From IMG/VR virus record IMGVR_UViG_2526164613_000026: a stretch of 38,095 nucleotides of DNA, one strand, 5' to 3'. Source of the DNA: a virus. Its lineage: Duplodnaviria; Heunggongvirae; Uroviricota; Caudoviricetes. Within the stretch, counting starts at the first letter, position 1. Every line of letters begins with the position of its first letter. Under the pieces are notes generated by a model, which saw nothing but the letters and a program-made list of their open reading frames with translations, made no database searches and had not been told where the DNA came from. Position numbers and translations under genes: made by a program. This document shows, piece by piece, positions 1 to 22,774 of the stretch.

Positions 1-618
1 TGCATGATCCATAATTGTGTGTGATTGCCCTGAAAGTAGGGTACGTCCGACATCAATCCCGCGCCCATCATCCCAGATACGAATGAAATCACCGCGTGCG
101 TCAGGTAATGCCAGCGCCGGAAACACTTTCGCCAGCACAGGGTAATCAGTGGCAGAGAATTTCGCGCCGTTGAACTTCAAAAACACCATACCGGACCAGC
201 TATCGATTACGGTATCTGGCATTGCAGCGGACGGCCAGAAGAACGGAACGCCAATAGCTGGAGCTCCTTCTCCCAAACCAAGGTTTTCGAGAGCCGTTTT
301 CACCGTGCCATCCGATTTGATATCACCAAACGGATTCTTGCGGCTCAGGTATTCAACAGCAAACCCCGATCCCAGCAATTCAACAAAACCGGGCAGATCA
401 CCATTATCAAGCACATCCCGTTGCGTTTTATCACTTACAAACTGGGCCAGAGCTGCAGCAATAAAGCTGGCCTGCCGAATAACCTTATTGACTTGCGCAC
501 TGGAGGCTTTCCCTGCTGTAAATCCGGATAAAAGCGCGGGCAACGCTTCCCATTCCTCCTGCGATATAACATTGGCATTTCGATCCGTTGCAAACGCTTT
601 AAAGTCATTTTTCGTCAT
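1..618 (-). CDS. Tail fibre protein, N-terminal part (gene continues beyond window start)
   Basis: Minus-strand frame open from ATG at 618 to position 1 with no stop (hand-translated). ATGA overlap with upstream gene stop. Residues about 150-206 match the phage tail-collar motif ([42 protein letters not shown]). Confidence 0.7.
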
Positions 619-20074: not shown

Positions 20075-20599
20075 TTACCGGGACTGTTCTATTTGTCGGA
20101 CACCAGCCAACTGGTTATTCGCCTTCTCGATGGCTGCCAACAGTGGGTTAATCCACAGAACAGCCTGGCAATATGTCAACGTTCTGGTGGTAGTGGCACG
20201 ATCACCGGCTGAGTCAATGTCCCCGGAATCGGCGTGCAATGCGCTGGCGCGTAAACGGTTCGCGTAGTTGAGCAACCCGACAGCAATATCAACAGGAACA
20301 GGGAAATCACAGTTCTTTTCACGGAGCAGAACCTCACGGTATTTGATGACTGTCTTCTCGTGACCGATGTCGACCAGAGAATTTAATCGGCTTGCGTTTT
20401 CTGCTATCTGGTTAAAACGATTGAAGTTTAATGCCTGATTAGCTATCACTTTCCCTTGATATTCAGCTTCACCTTCCGCTTTATCAGCCCGCAACTTTTC
20501 TGCCTGATACTTGCTGTGGTAATGGTTTGCAGACCAGACGAGCGCCCCAAAGGCAGAGAAGAAAAATGCCGCGATGACAATCTTATAAGTCAGCTTCAT
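20075..20599 (-). CDS. Rz: Rz-like i-spanin
   Basis: 174 aa, ATG at 20599. N-terminal signal-anchor (IVIAAFFFSAFGALVWSANHYH), coiled-coil-like periplasmic part, directly after endolysin. Confidence 0.8.
   Translation of the reverse strand: MKLTYKIVIAAFFFSAFGALVWSANHYHSKYQAEKLRADKAEGEAEYQGKVIANQALNFNRFNQIAENASRLNSLVDIGHEKTVIKYREVLLREKNCDFPVPVDIAVGLLNYANRLRASALHADSGDIDSAGDRATTTRTLTYCQAVLWINPLLAAIEKANNQLAGVRQIEQSR
20176..20322 (-). CDS. Rz1: Rz1-like o-spanin lipoprotein embedded in Rz (+1 frame)
   Basis: Hand-translated 48 aa: MKRTVISLFLLILLSGC-STTRTVYAPAHCTPIPGTLTQPVIVPLPPER. GTG start at 20322 with GAGG upstream, lipobox LLSGC, proline-rich C-terminus. Absent from ORF track (GTG start, under 60 aa). 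Confidence 0.6.
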   Translation of the reverse strand: MKRTVISLFLLILLSGCSTTRTVYAPAHCTPIPGTLTQPVIVPLPPER

Positions 20600-21059
20600 T
20601 TACCATCCCACCAGCATCTTTAAACCTGGAAATCAGGTCACCGATTTTATGTTCATACTGACCGTAACCTGCACCAGGTAACGACGCCCAGATATTGCTG
20701 CAACGGTCGATTGCCTGACGAATATCGCCACGGTCAATCATCGGTAAAGCGCCACGCTCTTTAATCTGCTGCAGCGCCACAGCGTCCTGACTTTCTGGCG
20801 AAAAATCTTTCAGGCCAAGCTGCTTGCGGTAGGCATCCCACCAGCGTGAAAGAAGCTGATACCGGCCTGCGGCTGTTGATTTAAGCTTCGGGTTTAGCGT
20901 GACAAGTTTGCGAGGGTGATCGGAGTAATCAGTGAACAACTCACCTCCGACGATAACGTCATAACCGTGATTACGTGTCGGTTGTCGCCCGTTATCCGTT
21001 CCTTCTGACCATGCCACCATATCCAGGAAAGCTTTGCGTTGGGAATTTAGTGTCTGCAT
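20583..21059 (-). CDS. R: Endolysin, lambda R-type lytic transglycosylase
   Basis: 158 aa, near-identical over most of its length to lambda R as recalled (NSQRKAFLDMVAWSEGTDNGRQ...DRGDIRQAIDRCSNIWASLPGAGYGQ). Confidence 0.9.
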   Translation of the reverse strand: MQTLNSQRKAFLDMVAWSEGTDNGRQPTRNHGYDVIVGGELFTDYSDHPRKLVTLNPKLKSTAAGRYQLLSRWWDAYRKQLGLKDFSPESQDAVALQQIKERGALPMIDRGDIRQAIDRCSNIWASLPGAGYGQYEHKIGDLISRFKDAGGMVNEADL

Positions 21060-21062
21060 GAA

Positions 21063-21404
21063 TTACTCCTTAGAGCCACCAAACTTGTTACCGATTACTC
21101 GCATTGCAGCCCCACGAATAGCATCGACACCGATCAGCCCAACACCACCACCAATGGCAACAGAAAGAGATTTAGGCCATCCAACATACTCAAGAGCGGA
21201 TGCAAAGGTCAGCGTCAGAGCACCACAGAGCAAAATCTCAAGCGTTTTTCGTTTCCAGCCGCCGCCACCGCCAAAATAGGCAATGCGCAAGCCAGCCATA
21301 ACAATTGACATAACCACTGCGCCCAACGGCGTATCTCCACGCCACCAACTTTGTAAGAGTTCCAGTAAGTCAGGCCAGGAATGAGGAGCATTGTGCATTT
21401 TCAT
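21063..21404 (-). CDS. Holin, class I-like with dual-start motif
   Basis: ORF track starts at ATG 21422 (119 aa). GGAGGTG sits before the ATG at 21404 (MKMHNAPHSW, 113 aa), with a further ATG at 21398. Three hydrophobic segments. Immediately upstream of R. Confidence 0.75.
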   Translation of the reverse strand: MKMHNAPHSWPDLLELLQSWWRGDTPLGAVVMSIVMAGLRIAYFGGGGGWKRKTLEILLCGALTLTFASALEYVGWPKSLSVAIGGGVGLIGVDAIRGAAMRVIGNKFGGSKE

Positions 21405-21503
21405 ACTTCCCACCTCCGCCATTACGGGGTGTTGTTGAAAGGCGGGCCCTGCGTATACGCCCGTAGGATTGGGTTATGAGCCGTCCTTCGGTGGGCCCTG
21501 AAT

Positions 21504-21527
21504 ACAAAAAAGTTCGCCATAGCGAAC
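21504..21527 (-). terminator. Intrinsic terminator about 80 nt upstream of holin (tR'-like position)
   Basis: Minus-strand RNA GUUCGC-UAUG-GCGAAC (6-bp stem) followed by UUUUUUGUAUU. Confidence 0.6.
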
Positions 21528-21753
21528 CTTGTTAAATTTGTTAAAAAGGAAGTTATTTAACATAATGTACGTTATAGGAACCACACGATCCCCGCTCGCA
21601 ATAGATTTGCGATGAAAGGCCTATTTAATCAACTTAAGTGGTCCAGAATGACGAAATTCGAGTGAATAAAAGGTGCATAAAAAAGGGCAAAAACTGCATA
21701 GCGTTTTTTCGCAGCGAAAGCCCTGTTTTATTAACTTTTCCCCAGAATGGGGC

Positions 21754-22220: not shown

Positions 22221-22643
22221 TTATGCCGCCGAGCAGCTCCTACGCAAAGTCCTGATAGCCTGAGGCTTTGACTGAACCGACTGATCCATTTCGAGCACCA
22301 CATCCAGCATGGCTAAGCAACCGTCAATAAATCCCTCTGCCGCCTGAAGCCTCTTCAGAACGTGGGTGTGAGATACGCCGAGCTTCTCACCCATCGCCCG
22401 CACGGGCATGGCCTGGACGTAATGCCACTCAAGGAGCGTGCACAGATACGGATCTTTTTTCTTCAGGCAGCTCATAGCGGAGTTGATGATAAGACCGTCA
22501 TTGTCACTGCATTTCAGCCTTCCAGACTGCGTCGCGGGTAGCAGATTCTTAAACCCGGCTGCAACAGGAGGAAAGTAGACGCTACCACCTTCACTCGCTG
22601 CCCAGCCACCCCAGCGCTCTAAAACCTGTTGAATATTACGCAT
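22221..22643 (-). CDS. Late-gene antiterminator Q (QuuD-like family)
   Basis: 140 aa, ATG at 22643. N-terminus MRNIQQVLERWGGWAA and overall pattern resemble DLP12 QuuD as recalled. Sits immediately upstream of the late region. Confidence 0.75.
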   Translation of the reverse strand: MRNIQQVLERWGGWAASEGGSVYFPPVAAGFKNLLPATQSGRLKCSDNDGLIINSAMSCLKKKDPYLCTLLEWHYVQAMPVRAMGEKLGVSHTHVLKRLQAAEGFIDGCLAMLDVVLEMDQSVQSKPQAIRTLRRSCSAA

Positions 22644-22774
22644 GGCTCTGACCTCTACGTTTTGCTACGAAAAAATTTTCTGAGAACTACGTCTGTTTAT
22701 CCGTGGGTGTGGATAACGCAGTTCCGATTCGCATATTGCATGTATCAACATGCAAAAAGTTGCTAATGCGGAGT

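Follow-up and report, generated by a model that had tools for sequence, protein, structure and literature searches.

An embedded Rz1 gene in a prophage lysis cassette, and its probable frame-split relation to LysC/SfV-type o-spanins

In SpaninDB, Kongari et al. (2018) grouped HK225, ZF40 and mEp237 as a family for both their embedded i-spanins and their embedded o-spanins (PMC6139136). The HK225 and mEp237 o-spanins have 48 residues, with a 32-residue periplasmic part, and run from 0.53 L to 0.80-0.81 L of the i-spanin length L (PMC6139136). No spanin family in that survey combined the embedded with the overlapped or separated architecture, and independent origins were favoured (PMC6139136). 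Here we describe a gene of this kind in IMG/VR virus record IMGVR_UViG_2526164613_000026, a stretch of 38,095 nucleotides (hereafter the window): an Rz1 (o-spanin) gene that lies wholly inside Rz, the i-spanin gene. Its product corresponds to one half of the domain that constitutes the o-spanins of LysC/SfV type; the other half appears to be encoded in a different frame, by the end of Rz itself. All genes and elements located below are on the minus strand.

The Rz1 coding sequence (20322..20176) comprises 48 codons and a TGA stop. Its GTG start (20322..20320) lies at Rz offset 277, and thus (277 mod 3 = 1) in the +1 frame; the stop is at 20178..20176. A Shine-Dalgarno-like GAGGT, read from the sequence at 20335..20331, stands 9 nucleotides before the GTG. 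The complete 48-residue peptide is MKRTVISLFLLILLSGCSTTRTVYAPAHCTPIPGTLTQPVIVPLPPER. Residues 1-16 (MKRTVISLFLLILLSG; 20275..20322) form a signal peptide, with an n-region of K2 and R3 and a hydrophobic core of 12 residues (5-16), which passes our own implementation of the PROSITE PS51257-type lipoprotein pattern. The lipobox L-S-G-C (20283..20272) ends at Cys17 (20274..20272), the first residue of the mature protein (CSTTRTVYAPAHCTPIPGTLTQPVIVPLPPER; 20179..20274). The mature part has 32 residues, of which seven are proline (22%); it carries serine next to the lipobox cysteine, a second cysteine (C29 of the precursor, mature position 13), and a C-terminal PLPP motif. A preliminary description of the window, made from its sequence, had placed the open reading frame (ORF) at exactly these coordinates, leaving the strand unstated, and had read it as a GTG-started +1 frame of 48 codons with a ribosome-binding site, a canonical lipoprotein signal and a short proline-rich mature part. 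Each of these readings proved correct.

The resemblance to the HK225-type family is close. Window Rz1 occupies the same relative coordinates (277/525 = 0.53 and 424/525 = 0.81), and shares 73% identity with the o-spanins of HK225 and mEp237 and 60% with that of ZF40. Identity between window Rz and the i-spanins of HK225 and mEp237 is 54% over the full alignment, and it is 53-56% for the closer members HK225, mEp237, LLS, PHB10 and Flotzy. The embedded +1 architecture and the cysteine pattern are common to the window pair and the family. SpaninDB joins proteins in a family when identity reaches 40% or more across 40% or more of the length, and by that measure Rz and Rz1 both belong with HK225, ZF40 and mEp237. 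Some differences are apparent: the window lipobox is LSGC rather than LVGC, and its Shine-Dalgarno motif GAGGT rather than GGGAG; the N-terminal ~45 residues of its Rz resemble Rz of the SfV/SfII type; and its partner is a lambda R-like transglycosylase, whereas the lysozyme annotated in several relatives is a different one (to judge by the LLS record, a signal-anchor-release (SAR) endolysin).

Taken singly, the window sequence is only suggestive that Rz1 is more than a chance ORF, because the lipoprotein rule is loose. Among 20000 synonymous recodings of Rz, 212 (1.1%) yielded an ORF in the +1 or +2 frame that passes the rule, and 18% kept the +1 frame open over 68 codons or more, the length of the real stretch. 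The comparison of homologues is decisive. These were drawn from 14 phage records and from 80 IMG/VR loci; the 71 distinct Rz proteins among them have Rz identities down to 31%. All 71 contain a +1 ORF with a lipobox, an aligned Rz1 stop codon, and the second cysteine at mature position 13; the mature length is 32 residues in 70. The lipobox itself varies (LVGC, LSGC, LAGC, LMGC, LIGC, LTGC and LVSC), and the mature consensus reads CS(T/N)TRTVYVPAQCTPIP..LTQP...PLPP.. throughout the homologues. The embedded ORF is thus conserved in related Rz genes, contrary to what the preliminary description had named as grounds for refuting it.

Variability at the three codon positions gives the same picture. 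Upstream of Rz1, entropy at Rz position 3 is 1.25-1.43 bits and at Rz position 1 is 0.63-0.94 bits; downstream, the corresponding values are 1.21 and 0.48 bits. Inside the overlap, position 3 falls to 0.30-0.36 bits and position 1, at 0.73-0.90 bits, becomes the most variable. Rz position 1 is position 3 of Rz1, so the codon-position entropy shifts to the Rz1 frame. Over the same nucleotides, mean pairwise identity is 84% for mature Rz1 and 58% for the Rz frame, and in relatives at 31-46% Rz identity the mature Rz1 is still 61-77% identical. Judged from these alignments, purifying selection acts on the Rz1 frame across the Rz homologues. The ORF, the aligned stop, the invariant residues and the entropy shift in 71 homologues together show a genuine gene rather than chance, and 20322..20176 is very probably the Rz1 gene, encoding the o-spanin of a two-component spanin in which Rz is the inner-membrane partner, as had been proposed.

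In Escherichia coli, the Lol system sorts lipoproteins with a residue other than aspartate after the lipidated cysteine to the outer membrane. Serine, not aspartate, occupies this place (+2) in all 71 homologues, which predicts an outer-membrane location for Rz1.

The preliminary description did not foresee two things: the family is already catalogued; and the 48-residue peptide, on sequence comparison, corresponds only to the N-terminal half of the proteins of a wider, LysC-type o-spanin family. Residues 12-46 of Rz1 match positions 1-33 of the Pfam LysC profile (PF23793, 69 positions) with 16.9 bits. Residues 136-173 of Rz, read in the other frame, match positions 31-68 of the same profile with 13.5 bits, and the two pieces are collinear on the DNA. 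When Rz1 and the Rz tail are joined, the match to Pfam LysC rises to 41.9 bits (E 9e-11; positions 1-68; cutoff 27). The PHROG profiles behave alike: phrog_456 matches Rz1 at 8.5e-7 with the first half of the profile only; phrog_3001 matches Rz residues 138-174 at 3e-7, and the tail alone at 1.7e-8; the joined sequence reaches 3e-13 with phrog_456 and 1.6e-12 with phrog_3001. Because it scores 16.9 bits alone, at positions 1-33, against 41.9 bits when joined, window Rz1 is assigned by similarity as a homologue of half a LysC domain, not as a PF23793 member as it stands. The C-terminal tail of Rz (residues 138-174, TRTLTYCQAVLWINPLLAAIEKANNQLAGVRQIEQSR; 20078..20188) appears to be homologous to the C-terminal half of the LysC/SfV-type o-spanins, in the Rz frame.

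Searches with the joined sequence separate two groups of phages. By tblastn, phages of the HK225 type match as two pieces in two frames. Others match as one piece in a single frame, with 33-43% identity: SfV, SfII, SfIV and vB_EcoM-720R4; Klebsiella phages (Mulock and others); and Yersinia, Vibrio, Aeromonas and APSE phages. These single-frame matches fall inside genes annotated as Rz1 or o-spanin. With 63-67 bits, SfV Rz1, the Mulock o-spanin and P2 LysC clearly belong to PF23793. By BLASTP, the joined sequence aligns with SfV Rz1 at 7e-15 (43% identity over 74 residues) with a single gap, at the junction; window Rz aligns with SfV Rz at 1e-19 (34% identity) over residues 1-126 only.

A hidden Markov model (HMM) of our own avoids the circularity of library profiles. 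It was built from six mature o-spanins of the overlapped type, all continuous ORFs, from six phage genomes. All 71 mature Rz1 sequences matched it at HMM positions 1-30 (median E 1.6e-5), and 70 of the 71 Rz proteins matched it at positions 30-67 with their last ~38 residues (median E 2e-7). Run over 684 six-frame segments of the window, it matched only the Rz and Rz1 segments.

The junction can be read to the nucleotide. At 20176..20186 the codons of the +1 frame are GAA CGT TGA (E, R, stop) and those of frame 0 are ACG TTG ACA (T, L, T), so that the Rz1 stop codon falls within the Leu141-Thr142 codons of Rz. In SfV a single frame runs through, as ...P V I P E P L T Y G...; in the window the +1 frame ends ...P L P P E R stop, while frame 0 gives T L T Y C Q.... 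The interval from SLT to LTY is 42 nucleotides in SfV and 41 in the window. Removing one C from the SfV sequence GAG CCG CTG ACC produces ...IPER-stop, identical to the ending of window Rz1. In the six overlapped-type phages that were read, the i-spanin frame closes a few codons before the junction (22 nucleotides before it in SfV), so the conversion also required, at a minimum, losing that stop.

Gene architecture and sequence motifs can be compared on the same terms. SfV and Mulock have the overlapped arrangement, with i-spanins of 130 and 129 residues, whereas the window pair is embedded and its Rz has 174. The SfV o-spanin continues ~157 nucleotides beyond the i-spanin stop in one frame; the window o-spanin stops at about profile position 33. 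LysC-type o-spanins and window Rz1 share the series C-x-x-T-R-T-V-Y-V-P ... P-[IL]-P ... L-T; the difference is that profile positions 31-68 are, in the window, encoded in the i-spanin frame (Rz residues 136-173). This C-terminal helix is the best-conserved part of the Rz homologues, with T142, Y143, Q145, A146, W149, I150, P152, L153, L154, I157 and N161 invariant. The Rz segment opposite mature Rz1, ...HADSGDIDSAGDRATTTRT, is poorly conserved.

This suggests that the HK225-type embedded pair, that of the window included, is probably a frame-split derivative of an overlapped pair of LysC/SfV type, in which the C-terminal amphipathic helix moved from the o-spanin to the i-spanin. Parsimony is the sole argument for the direction, from overlapped to embedded, because the single-frame form is spread over P2-like, Mu-like and lambdoid phages; its hosts include Escherichia, Klebsiella, Yersinia, Vibrio, Aeromonas and Hamiltonella. 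No intermediate was found among the sequences searched. (When close natural relatives carrying the two halves in a single frame were sought, only one close candidate emerged, P0019, a protein of 78 residues that NCBI names 'Rz1-like lysis system protein LysC'. It comes from one E. coli contig of 5.36 Mb, corresponds approximately to window 20310..20078, and has the N-terminal part of Rz1 fused to the Rz frame at LTQ|TGDRATTT. It was rejected as an intermediate: the fusion point differs, and it occurs in a single genome, probably through an indel or a mistake in assembly. Several proteins from ENA and Logan (P0020-P0024) are frameshifted chimeras of a similar kind.) No report of the frame-split relation was found in the searchable literature, which is not proof of novelty.

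Several observations weigh against this reading of Rz1 and its origin. By itself Rz1 falls below the PF23793 gathering cutoff (16.9 against 27 bits), and it has no other spanin-family match in Pfam. The LPAM_1 score, 18.5 bits, falls narrowly short of the cutoff of 20, and several unrelated, spurious ORFs elsewhere in the window also satisfy the lipoprotein rule. An NCBIfam search with Rz1 (E up to 0.1) gave no spanin-family match. A single-sequence AlphaFold2 model of Rz has coil at 123-133, in part of the segment opposite mature Rz1, and a helix at 134-173; its predicted local distance difference test (pLDDT) score of 53.6 makes it unfit for use, and the secondary structure is only weakly suggestive. 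The spanin genetics cited below come from lambda, T4 and a few others. Finally, a mature o-spanin of 32 residues is at the short end of the SpaninDB range, and its reach to, and binding of, Rz are inferred. (NCBIfam offered nothing of use for Rz, for Rz1 or for the two joined. Its P2_Rz1 model, NF038368, with a cutoff of 27 bits, scores P2 LysC itself at 128.8 bits and was matched neither by Rz1 at E<=0.1 nor by the joined sequence at E<=0.01.)

The lambda Rz/Rz1 pair offers a more distant comparison. Lambda Rz and Rz1 have their own Pfam models. In Pfam searches at E up to 10, Rz1 matched only LysC, LPAM_1 and DUF6726, and Rz only LysC and DUF4168, with no lambda-type similarity for either. 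The sole lambda-like signal for Rz is a weak one, to phrog_13 (1.7e-4; residues 5-64). The likeness is one of organization: both pairs are embedded at +1, and both are sited after S and R in a Q-dependent late operon. Both Rz1 proteins are lipoproteins with a proline-rich, largely unstructured mature part. The cysteines also are distributed alike, one in the o-spanin and two in the i-spanin: Rz1 C29 with Rz C99 and C152 in lambda (PMC6139136); Rz1 C29 with Rz C97 and C144 in the window. The two differ in that window mature Rz1 has 32 residues instead of 40, and PLPP in place of a penta-proline stretch; in addition, the C-terminal helix of window Rz would be of o-spanin ancestry.

Work on lambda Rz/Rz1 (PMC5295617, PMC6139136) is the basis from which we infer how the window pair may operate. 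Translation of Rz1 would begin at the internal GTG. The precursor would be exported, lipidated at Cys17 and cleaved by signal peptidase II, and the +2 serine would direct it to the outer membrane. The C-terminal part of Rz1 would then bind the periplasmic end of Rz, presumably a type II inner-membrane protein, so that the complex spans the periplasm, and disulfides through the conserved cysteines (Rz1 C29; Rz C97 and C144) may stabilize it. Once the holin has triggered and the endolysin has degraded the murein, the complexes would fuse or disrupt the outer membrane, releasing the phage.

As for the origin of the pair, a net deletion of one nucleotide at the ...P-E-P|L-T-Y... junction would have ended the o-spanin after its proline-rich half. 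The same change of frame, given the absence of the earlier i-spanin stop, would have fused the former C-terminal helix of the o-spanin to the end of the i-spanin. The PLPP end of Rz1 and the transferred helix now probably form the subunit interface.

Among the alternatives to a functional 48-residue Rz1, the one that fares best concerns merely the start codon, and has a small chance of being right. Translation might begin at the upstream GTG, 20337, to give a precursor of 53 residues. This is the longest version of the ORF (53 codons; 20337..20176), its product also satisfies the lipoprotein rule, with cysteine at position 22, and it is the form deposited in GenBank as BAI31869.1 and KRR57707.1. 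However, GTG is found at the aligned position of 20337 in only 10 of the 71 homologues, all from the window's own close clade, and GTG 20337 has no upstream Shine-Dalgarno motif and overlaps that of the 20322 start. At the aligned position of 20322, by contrast, 66 of the 71 have GTG or ATG (ATG in one), and 63 of those 66 have a Shine-Dalgarno-like motif upstream, homologues having GGGAG where the window has GAGGT. The other five, from two Serratia phages, one Hafnia and one Providencia phage, and BUCT708 (labelled Stenotrophomonas), have instead a TTG with a strong Shine-Dalgarno motif, 24 codons before the cysteine. SpaninDB likewise uses the 48-residue start. With aligned starts in 66 as opposed to 10 of the 71, the Shine-Dalgarno motifs and the SpaninDB length, the GTG at 20322 is, by comparison of the homologues, better supported than the 53-residue start of BAI31869.1, which is judged less likely. 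Both starts give the same mature lipoprotein.

A separate matter is the annotation of Serratia phages BZS1 (L003:492-815) and OS31 (L004:468-791), in which a 'lipoprotein Rz1 precursor' coding sequence of 107 residues starts ~74 codons before the lipobox cysteine. These starts are almost certainly over-extended, and the TTG 24 codons before the cysteine is the likely start.

A second alternative is that the window belongs to a decaying prophage, in which Rz and Rz1 are conserved by descent and no longer function in lysis. The window is indeed a chromosomal prophage of E. coli, yet all four lysis ORFs (those for holin, endolysin, Rz and Rz1) are full length against profiles, and the prophage keeps an integrase, replication genes, Q, terminase, and head and tail genes. 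Moreover, four deposited phage genomes (vB_EcoM-606R2, 689R2, 611R5 and 683R1) carry the cassette at 99.4% identity, and 125 complete E. coli genomes contain at least 80% of it. Because the genes are full length and the deposited phage genomes nearly identical, a dead cassette seems unlikely, more so than the upstream start. The cassette thus appears intact, as the preliminary description held, so far as its sequence can indicate.

More improbable again is a third alternative, in which programmed -1 frameshifting or transcriptional slippage carries Rz1 into the Rz frame, producing an o-spanin of ~82 residues, LysC-like, with the 48-residue form as one of two products. The joined sequence is, after all, a complete Pfam LysC domain, and the conservation of frame 0 past the junction would fit Rz and a frameshift product alike. 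But an X XXY YYZ slippery heptamer occurs in the Rz1 frame of the mature region in none of the 71 members, nor does a run of seven or more A or T, and the position of the Rz1 stop is strictly conserved. This mechanism was rejected for want of a slippery heptamer or homopolymer. Lastly, the notion of a frame left open by chance inside Rz, with a fortuitous lipobox and no gene, might appeal to the recoding frequencies and to the other window ORFs that pass the lipoprotein rule, but its probability is negligible, refuted as it is by 71 homologues with the ORF, the aligned stop and the invariant cysteine, serine and second cysteine, and by an Rz1 frame better conserved than Rz on the same nucleotides.

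The genuine 48-residue Rz1 gene and its frame-split homology have different claims to attention. The embedded gene itself was already known: its family is catalogued, the exact peptide has been deposited, and embedded o-spanins are a recognized blind spot of gene callers. Its annotation repair is correct but routine. The frame-split homology is well supported statistically, possibly unreported and experimentally tractable. If true, it provides a concrete route, at the level of sequence, by which an embedded architecture arose from an overlapped one. It would also mean that a functional segment can switch owner between the spanin subunits, and that the non-covalent break in the periplasm-spanning chain is movable. 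The relation serves as a natural experiment, bearing on which of the two subunits needs the C-terminal helix. How the spanin subunits meet, and how embedded genes originate, could be tested directly with two related and easily manipulated coliphage cassettes, of the SfV and HK225 types.

The split would account as well for the failure of profile annotation to find Rz1, since half of the domain is in another frame. Of 528 o-spanins in RefSeq phages, 196 were unannotated (PMC6139136). The exact 53-residue form is deposited as BAI31869.1, 'putative lipoprotein Rz1 precursor', from E. coli O103:H2 12009, and also as KRR57707.1; phage LLS is annotated with a 48-residue o-spanin at the same place. 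In RefSeq/PGAP, however, Rz is a 'hypothetical protein' and Rz1 is absent, and the records of the four vB_EcoM phages named above likewise lack it; the gene had been described as missed by ORF calling, and for these records that is so. The practical value lies here: more than 100 complete E. coli genomes, in their RefSeq/PGAP annotation, and several phage records stand without Rz1. Two other records may deserve a check of their host assignments: Stenotrophomonas phage BUCT708 (L011) and Elizabethkingia phage EKP1 (L012; Elizabethkingia belongs to the Bacteroidota) encode Rz/Rz1 of enterobacterial type, with ~52% Rz identity by tblastn.

The lysis cassette has the order holin, endolysin, and Rz with Rz1 inside. 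The holin/antiholin of the lambda S family (21063..21404; 113 residues) matches Pfam PF05106 at 1.2e-27 and TIGR01594 at 5.9e-40, and has the M-K-M dual start of the lambda type (Met codons at 21404 and 21398). An in-frame ATG at 21422 lengthens the ORF by six residues; records annotate the 113-residue form. The endolysin (20583..21059; 158 residues) is lambda R-like (GH104), matches phrog_90 at 3.4e-63, and is named 'glycoside hydrolase family 104 protein' in RefSeq. Rz (20599..20075; 174 residues), whose first 17 nucleotides are also the last 17 of the endolysin gene, matches phrog_214 ('Rz-like spanin') at 1.6e-58 over the whole profile. It has a single N-terminal hydrophobic segment, at about residues 3-21 (mean Kyte-Doolittle 1.91), and two periplasmic cysteines, Cys97 and Cys144, each at least 90% conserved among homologues. 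A search of PDB sequences with Rz gave no match. Downstream of Rz, on the same strand, are the genes for the small and large terminase subunits.

Nucleotide similarity to SfV (88.6%; window 20483..21377) covers the holin gene, the endolysin gene and the first ~117 nucleotides of Rz, and then ends. Rz of SfII and HK633 is likewise similar to window Rz over its first 30-46 residues. Together these point to what seems to be a mosaic recombination joint inside Rz, just past its transmembrane segment.

Scans of the window for tRNA genes and Rfam families found nothing. Upstream of the holin gene, and downstream of a Q-family antiterminator gene (22223..22645), is a terminator-like hairpin with a T run (21509..21530), which resembles a lambda tR'-type site for Q-dependent late transcription; in a scan for the terminator pattern, window sites were no more numerous than in shuffled sequence. 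The window is 99.99% identical to a prophage adjoining yfhL in E. coli O55:H7 DEC5B, which keeps the integrase, replication genes, Q antiterminator, terminase, and head and tail genes. Positions 1..266 of the window have no alignment to the DEC5B prophage; the break falls in that prophage's tail-fibre and tail-fibre-assembly region, a typical variable host-range module.

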